From a virus (lineage: Duplodnaviria; Heunggongvirae; Uroviricota; Caudoviricetes): DNA of 47,077 nucleotides. The DNA lies in the IMG/VR virus record IMGVR_UViG_2541047907_000002, positions 1 through 47,077 of that record; one strand, given 5' to 3'. Both the position numbers and the translations under genes were made by a program. Below, in pieces: positions 1 through 27,645 of this stretch (position 1 is its first letter; each line of letters starts with the position of its first letter). The notes below the pieces were generated by a model that was not told the origin of the DNA, did not search any database, and saw only the letters and a program-made list of their open reading frames with translations.

Positions 1-1131
1 TCAAATGACCAGTTTTTTCCACTCCTTACCGCGTGCATCGTTGTAAATATCAGTCATTTTTTGATTCGAATGACCTAGCAAAATTTGGGTATCAATTCCC
101 TGCTCTCTGAACAATCGCTCCGATAAAGATCTCTGCTCATGGAAAGAGGGTGGGGTGCCATTAGCACGCCAGTTGTAATCCACAGAATCCCGCGCTTTTT
201 TAAATGCAACGGTTAACGTTGCTGGCTTAACCATCCCGCCGCGCTTAGCTGTCCCTTTCGCGTGATGATGGTGCAATAGCCACGGACTAAGAACGCAATC
301 GCGACAGGATGACACCACATCATCCAGGGTGAGATTTAATTTATCGCAACGCAGAACCAGAGGGATGGCAATCCGGGTTCCTGTTTTTTGCTGTTCGACA
401 TGAAGATAACCATCCCGGATATCCGAAAATTGCATTTTGCAAATATCTGAAAGGCGCTGGCCTGTCACCAGTGCCAGCAGCATGCCGCGCTGTAAAAAGT
501 AACCATCCTTTTCCGCTGCGTTATAAATCATCATCCACTCATCAAAAGTCAGTCGCTGTCTTGATATCCGCACCTGCGGTTTTTTTGCCGATTCTGCAGG
601 GTTAAAGCCTGGCGGGACATCGCCTGTTTGCTGAGCTTCCCGGAAAACATCGATCAGCACCTTCCTGAAAATTTGTCCCATTCTGTTATGTCCTCTGGCC
701 TTGTACTCTTCCAGCACCGATACCACATCTTTTACGGTTATGGCATCTAACGGTCTGGTGCCAAAACGTTCATCAAATACCCTGAGAGGGGCCGCTTTTT
801 GTTTCAGCGTGTTGAGTTTGATCTCTCCGTTTTCATATCTTTCCTGTTGAATTTTTCTGTAATTATTCAGAAAAATGGAAACAGTTGATGAACCGCCGGT
901 ATCATTAATAATTTTCTCCTGCAGACTGAGCATTTGTTCCATTTGCTGCCTGGCAAGACGGCTGTTCGCTTCTGCTGCAATAGTTTCTGCCAGTTTCTGG
1001 TCAATACTGCCGAGACCGTGATTTTTGCCTGTTATGGGATGCCTGTAACGCCAGTAAACTTTGTTATTTCTTTTGTCAAAATATGGAGATAATCCCGGAA
1101 CATCGGTTTTATATTTTCGCGGGCGCGCCAT
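1..1131 (-). CDS. int: Phage tyrosine integrase (site-specific recombinase)
   Basis: 376 aa ORF at the prophage edge; C-terminal LLGHSNQKMTDIYNDA segment fits the tyrosine recombinase catalytic region (H..Y); start overlaps the upstream small basic ORF, the usual xis-int arrangement. Confidence 0.85.
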   Translation of the reverse strand: MARPRKYKTDVPGLSPYFDKRNNKVYWRYRHPITGKNHGLGSIDQKLAETIAAEANSRLARQQMEQMLSLQEKIINDTGGSSTVSIFLNNYRKIQQERYENGEIKLNTLKQKAAPLRVFDERFGTRPLDAITVKDVVSVLEEYKARGHNRMGQIFRKVLIDVFREAQQTGDVPPGFNPAESAKKPQVRISRQRLTFDEWMMIYNAAEKDGYFLQRGMLLALVTGQRLSDICKMQFSDIRDGYLHVEQQKTGTRIAIPLVLRCDKLNLTLDDVVSSCRDCVLSPWLLHHHHAKGTAKRGGMVKPATLTVAFKKARDSVDYNWRANGTPPSFHEQRSLSERLFREQGIDTQILLGHSNQKMTDIYNDARGKEWKKLVI

Positions 1132-14888: not shown

Positions 14889-15248
14889 ATGCGTATAGAG
14901 TTTGTTTTGCCTTACCCGCCGACGGTGAACACCTACTGGCGACGTCGTGGCAGCACATATTTTGTATCAAAAGCCGGTGAGCGTTATCGCCGTGATGTGG
15001 CGCTTATTGTTCGCCAGCAGCGACTGAAATTAAACCTGTCCGGAAGGCTGGCAATAAAGATTATTGCAGAGCCACCGGATAAGCGCCGTCGTGACCTGGA
15101 CAATATTCTGAAAGCACCACTGGATGCACTGACACATGCGGGGTTGCTTATCGACGACGAGCAGTTTGATGAAATCAATATTGTGCGCGGTCAGGTCGTT
15201 CCTGGTGGTCGGCTGGGGATAAAAATCACAGAACTGGAGTGCGCATGA
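14889..15248 (+). CDS. rusA: RusA-family Holliday junction resolvase
   Basis: 119 aa beginning MRIEFVLPYPPTVNTYW with later DLDNILKAPLDAL segment, typical RusA; AGAGG upstream. Confidence 0.8.
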   Translation: MRIEFVLPYPPTVNTYWRRRGSTYFVSKAGERYRRDVALIVRQQRLKLNLSGRLAIKIIAEPPDKRRRDLDNILKAPLDALTHAGLLIDDEQFDEINIVRGQVVPGGRLGIKITELECA

Positions 15249-15934
15249 ATAACCAGTATTTACAGTTTGTTCGTGAGCAACTCATGATTGCCACCACCGA
15301 TTTGAGTGGATCAACAAAAGGGCAGCTTGAGGCCTGGCAGGAGAATGCCATGTTTGATACAGGGCGTTACAGGCGTAAAAAAATCCGGTACCGCGATGAA
15401 GTGACCGGAAAAATGATAACGCTGGATAATCCACCAATCCCGGGGAAACAATCGCTGGCGAAGGGGACGTCAATTCCTCTGGTAAGTCAGGTTGAGTTTT
15501 CGACATCATCATGGCGACGGGCAGTTCTGTCTCTTGAAGAACATCATAAAACCTGGTTGTTGTGGTGTTACAGCGGAAGTATTTGCTGGGAGTATCAGAT
15601 CGCGATAACACAGTGGGTGTGGAATGAATTTAAGGCGCAATCCGGTACCAGAAAAATTGCAGGGAAAACGCTGGAGCGCCTGAAAAAATTAATCTGGCTG
15701 GCGGCACAGGATGTGAAGAGTGAGCTGGCTGGGCGTGAAACTTATGAATATCAGGAACTGGCATTACTGGCGGGTGTGACAACAAAAAACTGGTCCAAAA
15801 CATTTACTGGTCACTGGGTTGCAATGAAAGACATTTTCCACCGGCTGGATAGTGAGGCCTTATTGTTTGTGATGAGAACACGTTCAGAACAAAAGACGGC
15901 ATTTTCAAAGAAAAGTATTGCAAAAGTAGATTAA
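15245..15934 (+). CDS. Putative late-gene antiterminator Q
   Basis: 229 aa; ATGA overlap with rusA; position (after rusA, before the late/lysis region) and Cys/Trp-rich core fit the Q family. Confidence 0.6.
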   Translation: MNNQYLQFVREQLMIATTDLSGSTKGQLEAWQENAMFDTGRYRRKKIRYRDEVTGKMITLDNPPIPGKQSLAKGTSIPLVSQVEFSTSSWRRAVLSLEEHHKTWLLWCYSGSICWEYQIAITQWVWNEFKAQSGTRKIAGKTLERLKKLIWLAAQDVKSELAGRETYEYQELALLAGVTTKNWSKTFTGHWVAMKDIFHRLDSEALLFVMRTRSEQKTAFSKKSIAKVD

Positions 15935-16494: not shown

Positions 16495-17547
16495 ATGGTT
16501 GATACTGTAAAAATATCCAGTTGTGAGTTGGTCAACGCTGATTGCCTGGAATTTATCCGGACCTTACCTGAAAACTCTGTCGATCTGATAGTCACGGACC
16601 CACCATACTTTAAAGTGAAACCTGAGGGCTGGGATAACCAGTGGAAGGGCGACGATGATTACCTGCAATGGCTGGACCAGTGTCTGGCGCAGTTCTGGCG
16701 GCTACTGAAGCCTGCCGGAAGTCTCTACCTGTTCTGTGGGCATCGCCTGGCATCTGATATCGAAATCATGATGCGTGAGCGCTTTAATGTGCTTAACCAT
16801 ATTATCTGGGCTAAGCCGTCCGGACGCTGGAACGGGTGCAACAAGGAAAGCCTGCGGGTGTATTTCCCTGCCACAGAGCGCATTTTGTTTGCAGAACATT
16901 ATCAGGGACCGTATCGCCCGAAAGATGATGGCTATGAGGCGAAGGGCAGGGCACTGAAACAGCATGTGATGGCCCCGCTGATTGCTTACTTTCGTGATGC
17001 GCGTGAATCACTGGGAATAACGTCAAAACAGATAGCGGAAGCTACCGGAAAGAAAAACATGGCTTCCCACTGGTTCAGTGCCAGTCAGTGGCAGCTGCCG
17101 AACAAAGGCGATTATCTGAAATTACAGGCGCTGTTTGCCCGGGTTGCCGAAGAGAAGCATCAGCGCGGTGAACTGGAAAAGCCGCACCACCAGCTGGTCA
17201 GCACATACAGTGAACTGAACCGGCAATATGCCAGTCTGCTGGAGGAGTACAAATCTCTTCGGCGTTATTTTTCCGTATCGGCTGCCGTTCCGTATACGGA
17301 TGTCTGGACGCACAAGCCCGTGCAGTATTATCCGGGCAAACATCCATGTGAAAAACCGTCGGATATGTTGCGTCAGATAATTACCGCCAGCAGTCGTCCG
17401 GGTGACCTGGTTGCGGACTTTTTTATGGGGTCGGGGTCAACAGTAAAAGCAGCACTGGCGCTGGGGCGCAGGGTATTAGGTGTTGAGCTTGAGTCAGAAC
17501 GTTTTGAGCAGACAGTGAAAGAGGTAAGTGGTCAGGGGTATATTTGA
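16495..17547 (+). CDS. Orphan DNA methyltransferase, beta-class (N6-adenine or N4-cytosine)
   Basis: 350 aa; N-terminal IVTDPPYF (motif IV) and C-terminal FFMGSGST (motif I) in the beta-class order; no restriction endonuclease candidate nearby. Confidence 0.75.
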   Translation: MVDTVKISSCELVNADCLEFIRTLPENSVDLIVTDPPYFKVKPEGWDNQWKGDDDYLQWLDQCLAQFWRLLKPAGSLYLFCGHRLASDIEIMMRERFNVLNHIIWAKPSGRWNGCNKESLRVYFPATERILFAEHYQGPYRPKDDGYEAKGRALKQHVMAPLIAYFRDARESLGITSKQIAEATGKKNMASHWFSASQWQLPNKGDYLKLQALFARVAEEKHQRGELEKPHHQLVSTYSELNRQYASLLEEYKSLRRYFSVSAAVPYTDVWTHKPVQYYPGKHPCEKPSDMLRQIITASSRPGDLVADFFMGSGSTVKAALALGRRVLGVELESERFEQTVKEVSGQGYI

Positions 17548-18189: not shown

Positions 18190-18400
18190 AGACTTTTTAA
18201 AGCGGCGCATCCCGTGATGCAGCGGGGCTGAGTGGTCAGGGGTTCCTTCAGATGTACAATTCACAGAAACACTCAGTGGGCCATGGTATTTGGCTGCCAG
18301 TGACTCATCGGTAAAAATCCGACGCCGCTGCTCCTTGTTCTTCACATGGTTTTCTTAGCGTATTTTAAGCCGGTTGATAAACTCCACTTCCGGCTTTCTT
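18190..18400 (+). ncRNA. Candidate small RNA unit B (paralog of unit A)
   Basis: Same two conserved blocks as unit A with divergent middle and 3' parts; ends in stem AAGCCGG/CCGGCTT followed by a T-run. Confidence 0.3.
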
Positions 18401-18754
18401 TTTTCAGTATATTACGGAGACTTAAGGTTTCTCTTTCAATCAGGTCTGATACGACTCGCAGGTGCAGGATTCGTTTAGAAGAACACCATGTAAACGCCCT
18501 TCAGCTCAGGGGCGTTTACCGGGAGGCATTTAATGCCATATGTGAGGTGACAAATCAGATAACACGCGCGTCATGGGAAAAAACGGTTAAGCAATTCCAT
18601 GACACTCTGGTGGTTCGGTTTGACATTGAAGAGGCATGGGCGGAGCGGCAGTTAAAAAAGGTAACCAGATAACAAGGTTGATTTTTCCGGAATCTGTGGT
18701 AAATTCACCCTAACGATGGGCGTTTTATGCCTGACGTTAGAAGAATTTTTACAG

Positions 18755-18776
18755 CCCGCCATAGAGCGGGTTTTTT
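18755..18776 (+). terminator. Intrinsic terminator, truncated copy 3 of the terminator-leader module
   Basis: Stem CCCGC/GCGGG followed by TTTTTT; next ~45 nt resemble the leaders after the terminators at 15999 and 19647. Confidence 0.4.
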
Positions 18777-18911
18777 GTGCCCGAAAAGCGGTGCATAACG
18801 TTAAACGTGATGGCGATTGTGCAATGAGTTTCTCCTGCTCTGAAGTCTCTTGACTGCATGGAATCTCCTTTGTTATGTAAGGTGAGTCAATGTTTTTAAA
18901 TTGTTAGAGAT

Positions 18912-19631
18912 ATGGGTATGGATGACAGCACTCTACTGAGGAACTCTTCACTTTTTATTGCTTATATGGGCTGTCTTGGATGGGGAAGCGCTTATTTCTA
19001 TGGATGGGGTACTTCCTTTTACTATGGCTTTCCATGGTGGGTTGTCGGGGCTGGCGTTGATGATGTGGCCCGAAGTTTGTTTTATGCAGTTACAGTTATC
19101 GTTATATTCCTTATTGGATGGGGAGTTGGTATTGTTTTCTTTTTAGGTATAAAACAAAAAAACAATATACAGAATTTGAGTTTTATCAGACTTTTTCTGG
19201 CAATATTGCTGCTTTTTATTCCACCCGTTCTGGAGTTTTCGGTAATTCATCAGTTCGTTGAGCCAGATGTACTGATTTTTTGTGTTATTGCGGCCTTTAC
19301 AATTACGCTTTTTATCAGGTCAGGAAGAAGGCTTATTTCAGTCAAATGCTTTTCGGAAGTGTCTTTTATTCGCCATCACCGAATTGAGTTTATGATGGCT
19401 GGATTCATGATTTATTTCTGGACATTTTCTCTTATTGCCGGTTGGTACAAACCCCAGTTTAAGAGGGAGTATCAGGCGATCCACTATGAGAATGTCTGGT
19501 ATTACGTTCTTGCACGCTATGATGATCGTCTGGTTTTATCTAAATCGTACAGGCACGGTAGTACGAATTTCGTTATACTTAATAGCGCAAATACAGATAA
19601 TTTTGAAATTAACATTGTCAGAGTGCGTTAA
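18912..19631 (+). CDS. Multi-pass membrane protein of unknown function
   Basis: 239 aa with several long hydrophobic segments and aromatic/Gly-rich stretches; sequence looks AT-richer than the flanking phage genes by inspection. Confidence 0.5.
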   Translation: MGMDDSTLLRNSSLFIAYMGCLGWGSAYFYGWGTSFYYGFPWWVVGAGVDDVARSLFYAVTVIVIFLIGWGVGIVFFLGIKQKNNIQNLSFIRLFLAILLLFIPPVLEFSVIHQFVEPDVLIFCVIAAFTITLFIRSGRRLISVKCFSEVSFIRHHRIEFMMAGFMIYFWTFSLIAGWYKPQFKREYQAIHYENVWYYVLARYDDRLVLSKSYRHGSTNFVILNSANTDNFEINIVRVR

Positions 19632-19790
19632 AATCTCCTGAGTAATACCCGCCGTTGAGCGGTTTTTTTTATGCTCCAAAAGCGGTGTGGTATATTAAAC
19701 GCGCTGGCGGTTGCGAATACCGGTTTTCAGCTCGCTGGCTTTTTCGACAAGATTATTGGTATGTCACGTTATCCTGAAAAGGTAAAAGAC

Positions 19791-20015
19791 ATGTTAAAAC
19801 AGCGGGATATGACAGAAACCGCCAGATTTGTGTTTAATGAGTTAAGCGTCAGCGAACCCCCGACGGTCGGGGATAGTGCGCAGAATGCTTACCTTCCACG
19901 AGAACGCTGTCAGTTACTCCTAACTCAGCTTGTCATAGCTGGGCTGATGAGTGTTAGCGGCACCTGTCAGTCATTTGCTTATGTGTTGATGAGAATTTAC
20001 TTTTTGGGGCTATAA
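19791..20015 (+). CDS. Paralog of the 65 aa small protein, with an altered C-terminus
   Basis: First ~48 residues closely match the protein at 16147-16344; an apparent ~78 bp deletion relative to copy 1 fuses the reading frame to downstream sequence; preceded by terminator-leader copy 2 (about 19647-19668). Confidence 0.4.
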   Translation: MLKQRDMTETARFVFNELSVSEPPTVGDSAQNAYLPRERCQLLLTQLVIAGLMSVSGTCQSFAYVLMRIYFLGL

Positions 20016-20051
20016 TTAAGCTAACCAATTGCTAATTAAAGTAAAATCATA

Positions 20052-20765
20052 ATGGATGTTGTCTGTTCAGTTATCATGGTTTGCTCCCCAATTAATATTT
20101 TTCTTGAAAAGGATACGTTGTCACTTAAGCCCGGCTCAATCGTTCTGGCCACCAAATGCATCAGGGAGCTTTTCCTTATGCATTATGGCAAAGTTAAAAT
20201 TGTCGATATAAGCCATTCTATAGTAAGTCAATATCTGGAAAGCCAGCATAAGCTGACAAGAGGTCCTCTGACTGACATTCCGCTTTACTTGTTGCTGGAC
20301 CCCAACAATCCTGCGTTGGCTGCGGCTTTAATTACCAGCCAGAGATTTTCCGGAGAGATCACGGATATGTTTCTTATGATGGCCTGCCTGTCGCTGTTTG
20401 AATCAGATGAACGGATGTCATTATTTTTAATTGGATGTGTATCCAGTATAAGTGTCAAAGTCAGAGCGATAATTCAAACAGATATATCAGCAAGCTGGAC
20501 GCTTGGTGCGATTGCTCTACAGTTGCATATGAGTGAGAGCTTGTTAAAGAAAAAACTCAAGGATGAAGGTCTCAGGTTCAGTAATTTGTTACTTGAGGAA
20601 CGGATGCGGGTTGCTGTAAATATGTTATGTTCCCGGCATGGATATGGACAGGCTCTAGCAGAAAAATGCGGTTATTCAAGTAGGTCCTACTTTATCTCTG
20701 TATTTCACCGCTATTATGGCTTCCCGCCAGACAGATATGTATCTATGCAAAGGCTTGATTTTTGA
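20052..20765 (+). CDS. AraC-family transcriptional regulator
   Basis: 237 aa; C-terminal double-HTH region WTLGAIALQLHMSESLLKKKLKDEG...GYSSRSYFISVFHRYYGFPPDRY typical of AraC/XylS. Confidence 0.7.
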   Translation: MDVVCSVIMVCSPINIFLEKDTLSLKPGSIVLATKCIRELFLMHYGKVKIVDISHSIVSQYLESQHKLTRGPLTDIPLYLLLDPNNPALAAALITSQRFSGEITDMFLMMACLSLFESDERMSLFLIGCVSSISVKVRAIIQTDISASWTLGAIALQLHMSESLLKKKLKDEGLRFSNLLLEERMRVAVNMLCSRHGYGQALAEKCGYSSRSYFISVFHRYYGFPPDRYVSMQRLDF

Positions 20766-20792
20766 TTTCATCTGATTACTATTTTTCGATCC

Positions 20793-20868
20793 GGCCCTTT
20801 AGCTCAGTGGTGAGAGCGAGCGACTCATAATCGCCAGGTCGCTGGTTCAAATCCAGCAAGGGCCACCA
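20793..20868 (+). tRNA. tRNA with CAU anticodon, ileX-like (Ile2/lysidine type)
   Basis: Hand-folded cloverleaf: acceptor GGCCCTT/AAGGGCC, D-stem GCTC/GAGC, anticodon loop CTCATAA, T-loop TTCAAAT, 3' CCA; very similar to E. coli ileX as recalled. Confidence 0.8.
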
Positions 20869-20869
20869 A

Positions 20870-20946
20870 CCGCCACTAGCTCATCAGGAAAGAGCATCAA
20901 CCTTCTAAGTTGACGGCGCGAGGTTCGAGTCCTCGGTGGTGGGCCA
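20870..20946 (+). tRNA. tRNA-Arg (UCU anticodon)
   Basis: Hand-folded: acceptor CCGCCAC/GTGGTGG (one G-U pair), anticodon loop CTTCTAA, T-arm CGAGG-TTCGAGT-CCTCG, 3' CCA; unusual C1 start. Confidence 0.6.
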
Positions 20947-20948
20947 GT

Positions 20949-21024
<76 letters not shown>

Positions 21025-21027
21025 TAT

Positions 21028-21102
<75 letters not shown>

Positions 21103-21474: not shown

Positions 21475-21633
21475 TTCGATTTCTTCATGGTTCGCTATTG
21501 TGGACCTTTTCCACGTATTTTCTGGCGGTTATTATGACGGCTTGTTTCTTTGTTCATAAGAGGATTGATGCTGTGATCTCTTATGCAGATATCAGAGCAA
21601 AACAGGCCGAAATTCTGAAGGCTGAGCAGGAAT

Positions 21634-22014
21634 ATGTTCAGCGGTTGCGGGATACAGCAAAAAAAGCTGGTCAGTGCTTATGAAGATTCTCTGGAATTGC
21701 CTGCTTCACAGTGGTGCGATATTAACGGAAAAGAACGCCCGTATGTTCATATTTTGTGGAATGGGCACAATACAAAACCTGAGGATTTGCGGGTAGAGCT
21801 TCAGGATGGTGTTGCATTTGATTTGTGGACTGTCGTTGATGATAACCCACGTCAGTCTGCAAGCATGAAGATTGGCATACAGATTCTGTTGCTTGATGGC
21901 GACAACATAACGATTTCAGTTGATGGCTATCAGGCCAGAACATTTTCGCACGTAGATACGGACGCAAAAATTAACGAGATATGCGAGTTCATCAAAGACA
22001 GTATTTTAATGTAG
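21634..22014 (+). CDS. Hypothetical protein (126 aa) upstream of the lysis cassette
   Basis: ORF between the terminator and the holin; start ambiguous because a second frame (GTG about 21573) overlaps and meets it at an A7 run (21659-21665). Confidence 0.4.
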   Translation: MFSGCGIQQKKLVSAYEDSLELPASQWCDINGKERPYVHILWNGHNTKPEDLRVELQDGVAFDLWTVVDDNPRQSASMKIGIQILLLDGDNITISVDGYQARTFSHVDTDAKINEICEFIKDSILM

Positions 22015-22261
22015 ATGAATGATGTGAAATTTGACAAAGCATCTCTTCCGAAGATAGAAGGCTGGAGTCGTAATAAAGGAATCGTTCGAAAATCTCTGAA
22101 TCATCGGGCTGCGCACTTGCGCGGCCTTTTTTATATCCGCGCCACGTCCGGCGCACATCACATCAGATAACACCACACAAAAGGTATCTGCGGGTGCCTT
22201 TGACGGGGTGTTGTTTTTTACGGGCCGACAGTGGCCCTTTTTTATTTACAGGAGAAAAAGT

Positions 22262-22654
22262 ATGTCTGAACCCTTATCCGGTTCCGGCACGGCTGCGGCG
22301 CTCGGCGGGGCGACGGTATTCGGGCTGTTTACCGGAACGGATTTCGGGATAGTGTTTGGCGCATTTGCCGGTGCACTGTTCGTGGCCACGATACCGCAAG
22401 CGCTTTCAGCCTGGCGGGTGGCAGCGCATTTTCTGGTGTCGTTTATTGTCGGCGTGCTGGGCGCGGATGTTCTGGCATCCTGGCTGGTAAAGCATACAGA
22501 GTTTAACAGTGCGCCTGTCGACGCATTGTGTGCAGTGCTGGTATCAGTGGTGTCGGTGAAGATTCTGTCGTTCATCCACCAGCAGGATATCGCATCACTG
22601 GTATCCGGCCTGTTCTCGCGCCTGCGGGGCGGAGGAGGTGGCAATGTTAAGTAA
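22262..22654 (+). CDS. Putative holin (multi-pass membrane protein)
   Basis: Start ATG 22262 preceded by AGGAGAAAAAG; 3-4 Gly-rich hydrophobic segments; directly upstream of the endolysin. Confidence 0.5.
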   Translation: MSEPLSGSGTAAALGGATVFGLFTGTDFGIVFGAFAGALFVATIPQALSAWRVAAHFLVSFIVGVLGADVLASWLVKHTEFNSAPVDALCAVLVSVVSVKILSFIHQQDIASLVSGLFSRLRGGGGGNVK

Positions 22655-22922
22655 CCTTCCCGGCTTGCTGAATGTGGCGTTATGCACGGTTATCGTGCTG
22701 ACGCTCTTTTTTTATCGTCGTCGCGATTCCAGACATAAACCACTGATGTCATGGCTGGCCTGGCTGCTGATGCTGCTTTATGCCTTTGCGCCCCTCAGTT
22801 ATCTGTGCGGACACTTCCCGCCGGGTAACTGGCTGGTGGTGTTTTTTAACCTGCTGGTCTGTGTGCTGGTGATACGCGCACGCGGGAACGTTTCAAAAAT
22901 CCTTGTATTACGAAGGCGCTGA
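22644..22922 (+). CDS. Second holin-like small membrane protein
   Basis: 93 aa with three hydrophobic segments and a basic C-terminal tail (RARGNVSKILVLRRR); GGAGGAGGTG upstream; overlaps both neighbours. Confidence 0.4.
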   Translation: MLSNLPGLLNVALCTVIVLTLFFYRRRDSRHKPLMSWLAWLLMLLYAFAPLSYLCGHFPPGNWLVVFFNLLVCVLVIRARGNVSKILVLRRR

Positions 22923-22923
22923 T

Positions 22924-23469
22924 ATGAAGTTGAAAGATGAAATTTTTGACGAAGTTCTGGGAAAAGAGGGCGGCTACGTCAATCATCCGGACGATAAAGG
23001 CGGACCGACAAAATGGGGTATTACGGAAAAAGTCGCCCGCGCTCACGGATATCGCGGCGATATGCGTGACCTGACGCGCGGGCAGGCGCTGGAAATACTC
23101 GAGGCGGATTACTGGTATGGCCCGCGATTTGACCTGGTGGCAAATCTGTCGCCGGATATTGCTGCTGAACTGTGCGACACGGGGGTGAATATGGGGCCGT
23201 CGGTGGCGACGAAGATACTTCAGCGCTGGCTGAATGTGTTCAATCAGGGCGGGAAGCTGTATCCGGATATGGATGCAGATGGACGAATCGGGCCGCGAAC
23301 CATGAATGCACTGCGTGAATACCTGCAGAAACGGGGCAGGGACGGAGAACTGGTGTTACTGAAATCGCTGAACTGCACGCAGGGTGACCGTTATCTGGAA
23401 CTGGCAGAGAAACGCGAGGCCAATGAGTCGTTTGTGTATGGCTGGATGAAAGAGCGTGTTGGTCTGTAA
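22924..23469 (+). CDS. Endolysin, glycoside hydrolase family 108 (N-acetylmuramidase) with C-terminal peptidoglycan-binding domain
   Basis: N-terminal EGGYVNHPDDKGGPTKWGIT is the GH108 signature as recalled; start ATG 22924 preceded by GAAGG. Confidence 0.75.
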   Translation: MKLKDEIFDEVLGKEGGYVNHPDDKGGPTKWGITEKVARAHGYRGDMRDLTRGQALEILEADYWYGPRFDLVANLSPDIAAELCDTGVNMGPSVATKILQRWLNVFNQGGKLYPDMDADGRIGPRTMNALREYLQKRGRDGELVLLKSLNCTQGDRYLELAEKREANESFVYGWMKERVGL

Positions 23470-23557
23470 TGCTTATCTCTGCACTCAGTAAGAACGGTTA
23501 ATCCTCTTTGCGGTTGGTGAAGTATTGGATTTACTGAAAAGAAAACCCCGACTGCCC

Positions 23558-23584
23558 GGCCCACGTAAACGTGTGGGCTTTTTC
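23558..23584 (+). terminator. Intrinsic terminator after the lysis cassette
   Basis: Stem GCCCAC/GTGGGC followed by TTTTT. Confidence 0.5.
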
Positions 23585-23728
23585 ATATCTGAATTTTTCT
23601 GCGCATCTCACGCGCATATCACAACACAGAACCTTTCAGGATGACCCTTGAGGAGCCGGCTGGCTGTCGGTGCCTTTCTGTGGGCCGGATTCCTGTGAGA
23701 CAAGGTTCATCACTAAAAGGTAATTCCG

Positions 23729-24295
23729 ATGAATATGATGACAGTGCCGTTTCACGGCGATTCTCTTTATGTGGTTAACCATAACGGCGAACCATACGTT
23801 CCCATGAAACCTGTCGTTGAGGGGATGGGGCTGGCATGGCAATCACAGTTGGCTAAGTTAAGACGGCGTTTCGCGTCAACTATAACGGAAATCGTTATGG
23901 TTGCTGAGGATGGGAAACGACGCAATATGGTGTCCCTGCCACTTCGAAAACTTGCAGGCTGGTTACAAACCATCAGTCCAAACAAAGTAAACCCCAAAAT
24001 CCGCGACAAGGTGATTCAGTATCAGGAAGAGTGTGACGATGTTCTCTACGAATACTGGACAAAGGGCGTTGTTGTTAATCCGCGTCGACTGAGCGTGATG
24101 GAAGAACTCAACCAGGCTTGCGCCGACATGAAACGGGATAAAAACATCGCCAGCCTGTTTGGTACCGGCCTGAATGAGTGGAAAACGGTAAAGGCTGCAC
24201 ACGTATCAAAAATTCGTGCGCTGGTGGATGAAGCCAATTTGTTTATTGATTTTGTGCTGGCTGGTACCGGAAAGGGAAAGGTGACGAAAACATGA
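23729..24295 (+). CDS. Antirepressor-like (Ant/P22 AR N-terminal-like) regulatory protein
   Basis: 188 aa; N-terminal region resembles phage antirepressor N-domains (tentative); AAAGG upstream of ATG. Confidence 0.45.
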   Translation: MNMMTVPFHGDSLYVVNHNGEPYVPMKPVVEGMGLAWQSQLAKLRRRFASTITEIVMVAEDGKRRNMVSLPLRKLAGWLQTISPNKVNPKIRDKVIQYQEECDDVLYEYWTKGVVVNPRRLSVMEELNQACADMKRDKNIASLFGTGLNEWKTVKAAHVSKIRALVDEANLFIDFVLAGTGKGKVTKT

Positions 24296-24474
24296 GCCAA
24301 AAACACTGGACACACAGAATGCCGCGAACGGCGGCGAAATGGGCACTGGTAGCGATACTGGTGCCTTTTTTATTGGCGGGATGCGTCAGCCTGGATAAGG
24401 CGCGCCAGATTTTCGATACAGTTTCTCTGGTCTGTGAAATTGTCGACAGTGTCCGACAGTGTATGCAGAACTGA
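24292..24474 (+). CDS. Small lipoprotein (60 aa)
   Basis: Signal-like N-terminus ending in the lipobox LLAGC; ATGA overlap with the upstream gene. Confidence 0.4.
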   Translation: MSQKHWTHRMPRTAAKWALVAILVPFLLAGCVSLDKARQIFDTVSLVCEIVDSVRQCMQN

Positions 24475-24645: not shown

Positions 24646-24945
24646 ATGATGGAAAAAACAGAAAACAAACCGATTGTAATTGGTGCTGATGCTGCTCCGT
24701 TTAAGTTTGAGTTGTCTCAACTGGTGGAGATGCGCATCAGTGATGAATGGGGTGAGGTTAAAGCCCGCGCGCAGTATGCGAATGGCGAAAACCAGTACTT
24801 GATCCACTACAAAGCAGCTGATGGTCGCGCCACGACGGAGTGGTTTGGTGAGTTAATGCTGGAAGCAACAGAAGATGATTGTCATCCTGGTTGTCCGGTA
24901 TTTGCTGGTATGGAATTACCGAAAGGCGCGGTCGTTACTGAGTAA
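24646..24945 (+). CDS. Hypothetical protein (about 99 aa)
   Basis: ATG 24646 preceded by AGGAGACG; no family recognised. Confidence 0.4.
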   Translation: MMEKTENKPIVIGADAAPFKFELSQLVEMRISDEWGEVKARAQYANGENQYLIHYKAADGRATTEWFGELMLEATEDDCHPGCPVFAGMELPKGAVVTE

Positions 24946-25247: not shown

Positions 25248-25757
25248 ATGGCAACGCAGGCGGAGGTGGCCGAGCATCTTGGTATAACTGAACGCTGGTT
25301 GCGGGATCTTCAGAAGCACCCGGGAGCGCCAAAAAATCGAAAGCGTGGTGAATACGATATTGATGCCTGGCGATATTTTTATATTTCATACCTTAAACGC
25401 AAAGGAAGAAGCGATACTGATGACGATGGAAATAGCGATTACGAAGAAAAATTACTTATTGCCAGATGGAAATTGACTGAAGAACAGGCAATAGCGCAGC
25501 AACTAAAAAATCAGGTAACCGAAGGCAAGCTCATTGATTCAGGGTTCTGCGTTTTCGCCCTCAGCAAACTGGCGATGGCATTGTCCAGTACGCTTGATTC
25601 CATTCCTTTATCCATGCAGCGACAGTTCCCGGATTTAACCCCGCGCCATATTGATCATCTGAAAACCCTTATCGCAAAGGGAGCGAATCAGTGTGCGCGG
25701 GCAGGGGATAAATTGCCGGAGTTACTCGATGAATATATCCGAACAACAGCTGAATAA
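25248..25757 (+). CDS. Terminase small subunit, lambda Nu1-like
   Basis: N-terminal HTH (QAEVAEHLGITERWLRDL) and C-terminal FCVFALSKLAMALSSTLDSIPLSMQRQFPDL closely parallel lambda Nu1 as recalled. Confidence 0.75.
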   Translation: MATQAEVAEHLGITERWLRDLQKHPGAPKNRKRGEYDIDAWRYFYISYLKRKGRSDTDDDGNSDYEEKLLIARWKLTEEQAIAQQLKNQVTEGKLIDSGFCVFALSKLAMALSSTLDSIPLSMQRQFPDLTPRHIDHLKTLIAKGANQCARAGDKLPELLDEYIRTTAE

Positions 25758-27645
25758 TATGATGGTCGCCGTCGCAACCGCATTACAGCCACTGATAAGG
25801 GCACTGCCGGTGACGCCGGTTGAGTGGGCTGATCAAAATTATTATCTGCCGAAAGAATCGTCATACGGTGAGGGGGAATGGAAAACGCTGCCGTTCCAGG
25901 TCGCCATCATGAACAGCATGGGGAATGATCAGATCCGTACTGTTAATCTGATTAAATCGGCGCGTGTGGGTTACACCAAAATGCTGCTGGGCGTGGTCGG
26001 GTATTTTATTGAGCATAAATCCCGTAACAGCCTGCTCTTCCAGCCGACAGATTCTGCAGCTGAAGATTTCATGAAAGCGCATGTGGAGGCAACGCTACGG
26101 GATGTCCCCTGCCTTAAAGCGTTATCGCCATGGCTGGGAAGAAAGCACCGCGATAATACACTCACCCTGAAGCGTTTTTCCTCCGGCGTGGGGTTCTGGT
26201 GCCTGGGCGGTGCTGCAGCTAAAAACTACCGTGAAAAATCTGTGGATGTGGTCTGCTATGACGAACTCTCCTCGTTTGAACCGGATGTGGAAAAAGAAGG
26301 TTCGCCGACGCTGCTTGGCGATAAACGTATCGAAGGCTCGGTATGGCCTAAATCCATACGCGGCTCAACGCCAAAAATTAAAGGCTCCTGCCAGATTGAG
26401 AAAGCCGCGAATGAATCTGCGCATTTCATGCGGTTTTATGTCCCTTGCCCTCATTGCGGGGAGGCCCAGTATCTGAAGTTTGGCGATGATGCGACGCCGT
26501 TTGGCCTGAAATGGGAGAAGGGTAAACCGGAAACGGTGTATTACCTGTGTGAACATAATGGCTGTGTGATCCGCCAGTCAGAACTTGACCAGAGCGGCGG
26601 ACGCTGGATTTGTGACAATACCGGGATGTGGACGCACGACGGCCTGGCATTTTACAGCGCCGGTGATGAGGAGATGCCGCCACCGCGTTCAATCACGTAC
26701 CACGTGTGGACAGCGTACAGTCCGTTCACCACCTGGGTACAGATTGTTTATGACTGGCTGGATGCGCTGAAGGATCCGAACGGTGTTAAGACGTTTATTA
26801 ACACCACGCTCGGGGAGCCCTATGAAGAGGCTGTGGCAGAAAAACTGAGTTTTGAGTTGTTACTGGAAAAGGTCTGTCACTATGGCGCGCAGGTTCCCCT
26901 GCGGGTGGTTTACCTGACCGCAGGGATCGACTCCCAGAAAGACCGCTATGAAATTTATGTCTGGGGCTGGGCTCCCGGCGAAGAAGCCTTTCTGATTGAC
27001 AAGCAAATTGTCATGGGGCGACCGGAAGATGAGGACACCCTTAAACGTGTTGATGCGGTGATCAGGAAAAAATACCGCCATGCTGACGGTACTGAAATTT
27101 CCATTTCCCGCGTCTGCTGGGATACCGGTGGTATCGACCAGGACATTGTGTATCAGCGTTCCAGAAAACACGGCACTTTTTTTGTACTTCCCATTAAAGG
27201 TGCATCGGTGTACGGCAAGCCGGTGATCACCATGCCCAAAAAGCGCAACCAGCGTGGTGTGTTTCTGTGTGAGGTTGGCTCCGATACCGTCAAGGAAATG
27301 CTGTACGCCCGTTTTGCCCTGCCGGTGGTTTCTGCCAGTGAAGCCGCCCCGTATACCTTCCGTTTTCCGGATAACCCGGACATTTTTTCGGAAGAAGAAG
27401 CACGTCAAATCGTGGCGGAAGAACTGGTGGAAAAGGTGGTTAATGGCAGGGTGAAACTGCTGTGGGATAAAAAAGGGCGACGCAATGAAGCCCTCGACTG
27501 CCTGGTATATGCCTATGCTGCCCTGCGTATTTCAGTACAACGATGGCAACTGGACCTTGAGGCACTGGCCCGGGCACGAAGAGACGAGCAGGATGAGGAT
27601 GATATGAGTCTGGAAGAGATCGCGGCTGCACTGAGTGGAGGATAA
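25729..27645 (+). CDS. Terminase large subunit, lambda gpA-like
   Basis: Extended similarity to lambda A recalled (e.g. KRFSSGVGFWCLGGAAAKNYREKSVDV, CPHCGEAQYLKFGDD); start ATG 25729 overlaps the small subunit gene. Confidence 0.9.
   Translation: MNISEQQLNNMMVAVATALQPLIRALPVTPVEWADQNYYLPKESSYGEGEWKTLPFQVAIMNSMGNDQIRTVNLIKSARVGYTKMLLGVVGYFIEHKSRNSLLFQPTDSAAEDFMKAHVEATLRDVPCLKALSPWLGRKHRDNTLTLKRFSSGVGFWCLGGAAAKNYREKSVDVVCYDELSSFEPDVEKEGSPTLLGDKRIEGSVWPKSIRGSTPKIKGSCQIEKAANESAHFMRFYVPCPHCGEAQYLKFGDDATPFGLKWEKGKPETVYYLCEHNGCVIRQSELDQSGGRWICDNTGMWTHDGLAFYSAGDEEMPPPRSITYHVWTAYSPFTTWVQIVYDWLDALKDPNGVKTFINTTLGEPYEEAVAEKLSFELLLEKVCHYGAQVPLRVVYLTAGIDSQKDRYEIYVWGWAPGEEAFLIDKQIVMGRPEDEDTLKRVDAVIRKKYRHADGTEISISRVCWDTGGIDQDIVYQRSRKHGTFFVLPIKGASVYGKPVITMPKKRNQRGVFLCEVGSDTVKEMLYARFALPVVSASEAAPYTFRFPDNPDIFSEEEARQIVAEELVEKVVNGRVKLLWDKKGRRNEALDCLVYAYAALRISVQRWQLDLEALARARRDEQDEDDMSLEEIAAALSGG

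Follow-up and report, generated by a model that had tools for sequence, protein, structure and literature searches.

A GH108 lysis cassette without Rz/Rz1 in a lambdoid Escherichia coli prophage, and a conserved 60-residue lipoprotein as candidate outer-membrane-breaking factor

Background

How phages without spanins pass the outer membrane of their host is an open question, for which a single alternative, phiKT gp28, has been described. The question is raised again by a stretch of 47,077 nucleotides (IMG/VR record IMGVR_UViG_2541047907_000002; hereafter the window), which is part of a lambdoid E. coli prophage and in which two holin genes and an endolysin gene are present without Rz/Rz1. There is nothing unusual in the cassette as such, which was known before from phage phiP27. 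What is new here concerns a small lipoprotein, Lpp60, previously set aside, whose gene, on comparison of related loci, is the conserved terminal gene of the cassette, placed in the spanin slot and lacking a credible partner. We favour, at somewhat better than even chances, a phiP27-type cassette in which Lpp60 acts as the outer-membrane-breaking factor in place of Rz/Rz1. The features on which the argument relies are the following:

22262 to 22654, plus strand: holin 1, 130 amino acids (aa), Phage_holin_8 (Pfam E = 2.5e-22; phrog_198 'holin', 7.5e-43)
22644 to 22922, plus strand: holin 2, 92 aa, Phage_holin_3_7 (Pfam E = 1.1e-19; phrog_217, 4.4e-37)
22924 to 23469, plus strand: endolysin, 181 aa, ATG at 22924, Glyco_hydro_108 (7.3e-26) and PG_binding_3 (1.4e-25)
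23558 to 23584, plus strand: terminator-like hairpin (23558-23579) followed by TTTTT, 89 nucleotides (nt) after the endolysin stop
23729 to 24295, plus strand: antirepressor Ant (P22_AR_N and ORF11CD3), between the endolysin and Lpp60 genes, its stop overlapping the Lpp60 start (ATGA at 24292-24295)
24292 to 24474, plus strand: Lpp60, 60-aa prolipoprotein, lipobox LAG/C (Cys31) with Val at +2, phrog_7528

Search for a spanin

First, the window cassette is without a two-component spanin of the Rz/Rz1 type, an embedded lipoprotein open reading frame (ORF) or a unimolecular spanin (u-spanin). The alternative frames of the endolysin gene hold only two ORFs, of 45 and 48 aa, neither with a lipobox nor with a transmembrane domain (TMD). 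Embedded spanin genes were rejected for the endolysin and ant genes together, the ORFs in their alternative frames being 29-48 aa long and devoid of lipobox or TMD. A six-frame lipobox scan of the whole 47-kb window left the product of 24292-24474 as the sole credible lipoprotein, the other matches having no charged n-region or lying inside larger genes. Similarly, a scan of the whole window for type II membrane proteins detected none near the cassette or in the late region. Searching the window by tblastn with Rz and Rz1 of three phages and with the unrelated spanin pair of locus L016 returned only noise (all E > 0.06), as did searching it with the published phiP27 inner-membrane spanin subunit (i-spanin), Bor and two small proteins of relatives described below, sTM1 and sTM2 (all E > 0.06). 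As a positive control, Rz and Rz1 of locus L003 matched 'Rz-like spanin' PHROGs at 4e-70 and 8e-23; no window protein does. No i-spanin candidate was thus found near the cassette, and none is conserved in the relatives.

Three small ORFs were considered and discarded. Two of them, the only basic ones on the cassette strand, 22015-22170 and 23525-23644 (the latter spanning the hairpin), have no support as genes and were rejected as disruptins. The ORF 21498-21683, with an N-terminal TMD and a charged helix, is the 5' part of a split phrog_5091 gene, whose intact form coexists with Rz/Rz1 in L003 and which is missing from most relatives. The positive charges after its TMD imply that the large domain should be cytoplasmic, which is not i-spanin-like.

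Conservation of the Lpp60 gene

To place the lipoprotein gene, loci were collected around holin 1 from IMG/VR (80 loci) and from GTDB genomes (6 loci), the scope being the top 80 matches of each scan, and the cassette proteins were mapped on them by tblastn. phiP27, two E. coli chromosomes and eight assemblies with an identical endolysin were added. Counts were taken over the 76 IMG/VR loci with a recognisable endolysin. Lpp60 lies downstream without Rz/Rz1 in 67 of them, its signal peptide and mature region being intact, on reading of the sequences, in 63 of these 67. Both Lpp60 and Rz/Rz1 are found in 1 locus, Rz/Rz1 only in 2, and neither in 6, where bor, genes of heat-labile enterotoxin II (LT-II) or an ais-like gene follow the endolysin. 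For instance, L086 and L096 (IMG/VR) have LT-II-like A and B genes directly after a GH108 endolysin, about 1330-2550 nt from the holin start, in place of Lpp60.

The holin pair is the same whether Lpp60 occurs with an M15 peptidase or with the GH108 muramidase, two unrelated endolysin types. Most M15 loci have the Lpp60 start at position +1052, counted from that of the holin, and about 14 nt past the stop codon of the endolysin; L081 and L087, with an otherwise homologous cassette, have the start of Rz/Rz1 at +1053. From these starts we deduce that Lpp60 and Rz/Rz1 share one slot, as in a positional replacement. The packaging modules downstream vary between loci (Nu1/gpA, DUF1441/gpA or phiP27-type), so that the linkage of Lpp60 is to the lysis genes. 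Consistently, in a reverse survey anchored on Lpp60, 70 loci extended far enough upstream to be judged; 69 of them have holin 1, holin 2 and endolysin directly upstream, and none has Rz.

A family-profile search of 1.8 billion representative proteins recovered only 22 Lpp60 relatives, and no homologue was found outside Enterobacteriaceae prophages. Two divergent relatives, P0119 and P0131, were looked up. At L181 the homologue lies 7 nt after an M15 endolysin, with the same holin pair; at L182 and L183 it lies 4 nt after an M15 endolysin that follows a single, different holin (Phage_holin_3_1) directly downstream of Q. The Lpp60 gene is present in 352 of 5426 complete E. coli genomes (about 6%), always as a 'hypothetical protein' of the Prokaryotic Genome Annotation Pipeline (PGAP) or unannotated. 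On the evidence of gene order, Lpp60 is the conserved last, fourth, gene of the cassette family.

The same loci bear on a different explanation, namely that the cassette is truly spanin-less, holin and muramidase being sufficient and the outer membrane failing by turgor or shear, with Lpp60 a late accessory lipoprotein, either for receptor masking or superinfection exclusion like T5 Llp or Cor, or as a virulence moron like Bor. In favour of this explanation, T5 Llp too is an outer-membrane lipoprotein of small size that contains a disulfide. So do the lack of any i-spanin in the window, the 6 loci carrying neither Lpp60 nor Rz/Rz1, and the interval between lysis genes and terminase being a known moron hotspot (bor, ais-like, LT-II, ant). 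Moreover, Kongari et al. (2018, PMC6139136) reported that no spanin could be identified in 13% of phages of Gram-negative hosts and that 31 phage genomes encode a lipoprotein to which no i-spanin is linked, which makes the latter a recognised category. However, Lpp60 starts only 4-15 nt from the endolysin in relatives, leaving no room for a promoter of its own. It is linked to the lysis genes across packaging and virion modules and across holin and endolysin families, unlike a receptor-specific blocker, and it is exactly in the Rz/Rz1 slot. Weighing these points, we regard an accessory lipoprotein beside a spanin-less cassette as unlikely, though by no means negligible.

The ant insertion

In the window, as opposed to the compact M15 cassettes, Lpp60 stands apart from the endolysin because an ant moron with its own hairpin is inserted between them. 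Over the gene and a leader of about 135 nt, the ant DNA shares 90% identity with ant of 933W and of many other Shiga toxin (Stx) phages. The annotation of 933W puts ant after S and R and before Rz and Rz1, so that the same moron lies there between the endolysin and a proven outer-membrane-disruption module, from which it follows that neither the insertion nor its hairpin ends the lysis unit. The hairpin and leader are common to a KilA-N insertion at the same place in pPE4 and only partly common to the R-ant spacer of 933W, so we consider the hairpin as the 5' edge of an inserted ant-type moron. By fold energy alone (-13 kcal/mol, z = -1.0) the hairpin does not stand out. A Salmonella enterica prophage, too, has GH108, ant and Lpp60 in this order, the proteins being 70-85% identical.

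These results can be compared with an earlier sequence-only reading of the window. It had described two overlapping holin-like membrane proteins before a GH108 endolysin, a terminator about 90 bp after the latter, no Rz-like gene or embedded lipoprotein ORF, and a small lipoprotein coupled to an antirepressor-like gene. The profiles, the hairpin position, the frame, lipobox, type II and tblastn scans, which included an all-frame search for embedded spanin-like ORFs, and the ATGA overlap agree with it on each of these points. Its overall picture stands for the absence of Rz/Rz1, embedded lipoprotein and u-spanin; it does not for the lipoprotein, which it had put outside the cassette. The 933W order does not support an end of the cassette at the terminator, and the place of the lipoprotein as last cassette gene in the 67 loci does not support its being an unrelated passenger of the antirepressor gene. 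Position and conservation bring Lpp60 close to a presumptive outer-membrane spanin, a role that the same reading had mentioned.

Properties of Lpp60

The precursor has an unusually long, basic n-region, (M)S.KHWTHRMPRTAAKW, an h-region ALVAILVPFLL and the lipobox (L)AGC. The mature peptide, CVSLDKARQIFDTVSLVCEIVDSVRQCMQN, counts 30 residues including the lipidated Cys, has no Pro and carries a net charge of -1. Two further Cys, at positions 48 and 57, are near-invariant. Hydrophobic positions follow a 3-4 heptad pattern (L34, A37, F41, V44, C48, V51, M58), with a helical hydrophobic moment of 0.4-0.6, and an AlphaFold2 model consists of a single continuous helix over residues 13-59 (pLDDT 71). 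In the family the +2 residue is Val, Ser, Thr, Gly or Ala and never Asp, for which reason sorting to the outer membrane is predicted. Lpp60 is under purifying selection: over 34 distinct alleles the ratio of nonsynonymous to synonymous polymorphism (pN/pS) is 0.26, with similar values in n-region, h-region and mature part.

We compared these properties with those of the known classes. As in the outer-membrane subunit (o-spanin) of a two-component spanin, Lpp60 is a lipoprotein with a lipobox, linked to the cassette in relatives. Only 29 residues follow the lipidated Cys, which cannot bridge the membranes as a two-component spanin does. Its family is phrog_7528, of unknown function, and not one of the Rz-like spanin PHROGs; it has no Pfam match at E <= 0.1 (Lysis_col included), no NCBIfam match and no named PHROG family. 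An hhalign comparison with Rz1 gave a probability of 1.1%, only the lipobox being aligned. It lacks the C-terminal hydrophobic segment of a unimolecular spanin of the T1 gp11 type, ending in ...VRQCMQN. Nor is it a small cationic amphipathic peptide like a disruptin, having a lipoprotein signal peptide and a negative net charge.

With the Rz-Rz1 system of λ and 933W the window shares the late-operon position after holin and endolysin and, for 933W, the same ant in between. Rz1 is, like Lpp60, an outer-membrane prolipoprotein of about 60 aa with a conserved Cys. In contrast, the window has no inner-membrane subunit and Lpp60 no sequence relation to Rz1, whose mature part is proline-rich, unstructured and 40 residues long, whereas that of Lpp60 is helical, without proline and 30 residues long.

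Relation to phage phiP27

phiP27 is the closest described case. Its holin pair is 95% and 86% identical in amino acids to that of the window, it likewise has a lipoprotein gene between endolysin and terminase and no Rz/Rz1, and its lipoprotein is 83% identical to Lpp60 over 60 residues, which places the latter in the singleton family of the phiP27 o-spanin. The two differ in the endolysin, phiP27 having an M15 L-Ala-D-Glu peptidase where the window has GH108, and in the gene between endolysin and lipoprotein, which is a reverse-strand gene in phiP27 and ant in the window. phiP27 and phiSTEC1575-Stx2k, both deposited as phage genomes, have the holin pair, M15, Lpp60 and no Rz/Rz1.

Kongari et al. 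(2018, PMC6139136) placed the phiP27 system among the 'separated' two-component spanins. With 62 periplasmic residues (32 + 30) it was the shortest known, and the mature domain of its o-spanin, 30 residues long, is given as 83% helical. From the supplementary coordinates of that study, the o-spanin is the Lpp60 homologue (record 20706-20861, equal to L001:4645-4800), and the i-spanin is a 64-aa ORF with a TTG start (record 20348-20542; L001:4287-4481). We did not retain the latter ORF as a gene. It has no PHROG match, lies antisense to a 90-aa ORF with an ATG start that matches phrog_36812 at 5e-20, occurs only in three loci with the phiP27-type insertion and has no counterpart in the window. 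The published i-spanin call is probably wrong, judging from these comparisons, and would call for a correction of the record.

The lipoprotein genes themselves also need correcting. The phiP27 GenBank entry has, over the lipoprotein gene (L001 4569-4800), an annotated L32 (51 aa) whose frame is wrong, and leaves the 62-aa lipoprotein ORF at L001 4612-4800 unannotated. In 'Actinobacillus phage vB_Apl-pPE4' the Lpp60 gene (L099:3001-3183) is likewise unannotated; where the lysis region of this phage matches the window, the DNA identity is about 87%.

The phiP27 assignment raises the question of whether Lpp60 could be the o-spanin of a true two-component spanin, with a non-canonical partner that may be a holin-family protein, a host inner-membrane protein or the product of a gene outside the window. 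The 'separated' class of phiP27 and the proposal that non-canonical topologies could serve as i-spanins (both from Kongari et al., PMC6139136) speak for it. So do the two holin-family genes that always accompany Lpp60 in the E. coli lineage, and the end of the window inside the tail genes, which leaves place for a distant partner. Against it, the phiP27 i-spanin ORF is poorly supported, as described above; neither holin has a periplasmic domain beyond a short loop; the distant homologue lies behind a different single holin; and 29 residues are too few to span the periplasm.

The other conceivable partners were sTM1 and sTM2, one or two tail-anchored proteins of 44-60 aa encoded between endolysin and Lpp60 (L002 3942-4276 and equivalents) in many GH108-type and some M15-type relatives. 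They belong to phrog_1115/4493 and phrog_4906, and the last sTM gene ends 2 nt 5' of the Lpp60 start. They were rejected as i-spanins, since these tail-anchored proteins have a basic N-terminus and leave hardly any residues in the periplasm, and since the window and about half of the loci lack them; this also counts against a two-component arrangement. They could be lysis regulators. A literature search for an orphan o-spanin returned nothing usable. Altogether, a hidden partner of Lpp60 seems quite improbable to us.

Proposed mode of action

We come back to Lpp60 as a substitute for Rz/Rz1. The cassette would be transcribed from a Q-dependent late promoter. The two membrane proteins would form the holin system, probably as a holin and a regulator or co-holin, and permeabilise the inner membrane; the GH108 muramidase, released by them, would then degrade the cell wall. 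These two steps follow from family membership and topology. For Lpp60, both the role in lysis and the mode of action are what we infer. Made late, it would receive its lipid and be carried to the outer membrane, in the inner leaflet of which its amphipathic helix of 29 residues would probably oligomerise, possibly through disulfides of Cys48 and Cys57, and weaken the membrane. It would be harmless as long as the wall bears the load and fatal once the muramidase has removed the wall, and it would act without a dedicated inner-membrane partner.

Colicin lysis proteins, or bacteriocin release proteins, are likewise tiny lipoproteins. Once mature they have about 28-33 residues, and they permeabilise the outer membrane by way of OmpLA, with no partner in the inner membrane. 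They offer the closest functional analogy to Lpp60 as proposed here, one of size class and lipid anchoring only, with no common family: they belong to colicin operons, whereas Lpp60 belongs to a phage late operon and, as mentioned, has no Lysis_col match. phiKT gp28, the 'disruptin', is a single small cationic antimicrobial peptide proposed to replace the spanin in a spanin-less E. coli phage (bioRxiv 10.1101/515445). Like gp28, the candidate Lpp60 would be a single small protein in place of spanins; unlike gp28, it has a lipoprotein signal peptide and is not cationic. Beside spanins and gp28, Lpp60 might then represent a third kind of phage outer-membrane disruptor, a solitary lipid-anchored coiled-coil peptide of 29 residues, colicin-release-like and replacing Rz/Rz1, a proposal that we put forward as tentative and rather doubtful.

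Several observations weigh against such a role in lysis. A tethered helix of 29 residues cannot bridge the periplasm, so the accepted fusion model of spanins is not applicable. The 6 loci out of 76 with neither Lpp60 nor Rz/Rz1 indicate that the function is dispensable or replaceable. Two loci, L003 (5733-5874) and L021 (8109-8250), have Rz/Rz1 together with a 45-aa Lpp60 with a GTG start, so that the two are not strictly exclusive. The mature peptide, at a net charge of -1, differs from the cationic single-peptide disruptor of phiKT. Most of the loci come from closely related E. coli prophages, which makes the counts phylogenetically non-independent, and the linkage of Lpp60 at a module junction could have arisen by hitch-hiking.

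A strict mutual exclusion of Lpp60 and Rz/Rz1, which we had considered, is thus discarded on account of L003 and L021. In these two loci the 5' end of the Lpp60 gene is replaced and the product still a plausible lipoprotein; in phage GER2 (L100 2988-3171) the Lpp60 copy is riddled with stop codons. Where Rz/Rz1 is present (L003, L021 and GER2), the Lpp60 homologue is altered.

At L182 and L183 (4450-5310) the gene after the Lpp60 homologue encodes an alpha/beta-hydrolase of 286 aa (Abhydrolase_1, 1.8e-26). An esterase or lipase ending a lysis cassette recalls LysB of mycobacteriophages, and by this analogy the hydrolase might be another outer-membrane-directed function.

Lpp60 offers a single candidate gene of 183 bp in E. 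coli, the most tractable host. If it is a third kind of disruptor, it would concern a cassette family in about 6% of complete E. coli genomes, including prophages associated with Stx2e, Stx2k and LT-II. Since the cassette flanks these toxin genes in relatives, lysis efficiency bears on toxin release. Toxin genes flank it repeatedly; for instance, the Stx2e genes of phiP27 lie directly upstream of the same holin pair.

Holins and endolysin

Both membrane proteins are assigned as holins by profile, topology and position, hole formation being predicted. Holin 1 scores 79.7 bits against a Pfam cut-off of 26.4 and holin 2 70.6 bits against 25.4. By hydropathy, holin 1 has three strong hydrophobic segments and a Gly/Ala-rich N-terminal segment, and its ATG is preceded at 9 nt by the Shine-Dalgarno sequence AGGAG. 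Holin 2 has three TMDs and a basic C-terminal tail, and its gene overlaps that of holin 1 by 11 nt. Both are small, with multiple TMDs, and directly 5' of the endolysin; the topology prediction, which the sequence-only reading had suggested, gives three or more hydrophobic segments for each and only short loops.

The endolysin domains score 91 bits (Glyco_hydro_108) and 89.7 bits (PG_binding_3), above the gathering cut-offs, as expected for a GH108 endolysin. The motif EGGYVNHPDDKGG is at residues 15-27, its EGGY part occupying residues 15-18. Hydropathy detected neither a transmembrane nor a signal or signal-arrest-release segment in the protein. With no hydrophobic segment, it is predicted to reach the wall only via the holin, as a soluble, holin-dependent N-acetylmuramidase. 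It weakly matches the NCBIfam 'holin-associated N-acetylmuramidase'. An endolysin with a cationic membrane-active tail was ruled out, the C-terminus ELAEKREANESFVYGWMKERVGL being net negative. A protein identical to it is recorded in 113 blocks of public assemblies. Coliphage N4 gp61 and Salmonella TtsA share with it the GH108 and PG_binding_3 architecture and the holin dependence.

The likeness to TtsA suggests a further possibility, that of a decaying prophage or of a non-lytic release cassette, similar to type 10 secretion, in which no outer-membrane disruptor would be needed. Spanin-less GH108 muramidases drive non-lytic secretion in Salmonella; relatives have toxin genes beside the cassette, those of Stx2e upstream of it in phiP27 and those of LT-II downstream of it in L086 and L096; and one neighbouring gene of the window is frameshifted. 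However, TtsA serves non-lytic toxin export, whereas the window endolysin lies in a prophage late lysis cassette, within a complete late operon between Q and λ-like terminase, portal and tail genes. None of the four lysis-associated ORFs is disrupted, and the identical endolysin is spread over many assemblies. Together with the purifying selection on Lpp60 and the deposition of phiP27 and the Stx2k phage as phage genomes, this makes decay or secretion very improbable.

Genomic context

The neighbouring genes of the window were assigned as follows, the far end of the window falling inside the tail genes:

1 to 1131, minus strand: integrase-sized ORF, running off the left end
14889 to 15248: RusA
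15239 to 15934, plus strand: late-gene antiterminator Q (Pfam Phage_antiter_Q, E = 1.6e-92)
16495 to 17547: DNA methyltransferase
18346 to 18672: second short Antiterm-domain ORF
18912 to 19631: 239-aa ORF, TfpB-like by calls in related assemblies
20052 to 20765: AraC-family regulator
20793 to 21102: four tRNA genes (Met-CAT, Arg-TCT, Thr-TGT, Gly-TCC)
24646 to 24945, plus strand: phrog_1935, soluble conserved neighbour, after Lpp60 in many but not all relatives, not assigned to lysis
25248 to 25757: λ-type terminase Nu1
25693 to 27645: gpA, followed by head and tail genes

The plus strand downstream of Q, from the lysis genes through terminase, is taken as one Q-dependent late transcription unit. 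From established lambdoid biology, Q-modified polymerase is expected to read through downstream hairpins, the one after the endolysin gene included. Two more terminator-like hairpins with T-tracts, at 22106-22137 and 22222-22247, lie directly 5' of the holin 1 gene; with hairpins on both sides, the lysis genes presumably depend on antitermination by Q. The block 18346-21102 between the Q/methyltransferase region and the lysis genes holds cargo, at the position of the tRNA and toxin genes of Stx phages.

Finally, an additional A in an A7 run (21659-21665) divides the phrog_5091 gene of the window (21498-22014) into ORFs of 61 aa and 126 aa. In E. coli NY1601 the gene is intact, and its product of 186 aa comprises a TMD at the N-terminus, a charged helix and a beta-rich domain. 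Several assemblies with the identical cassette have gene calls starting at the same 126-aa ORF; the split is therefore probably not a sequencing error.

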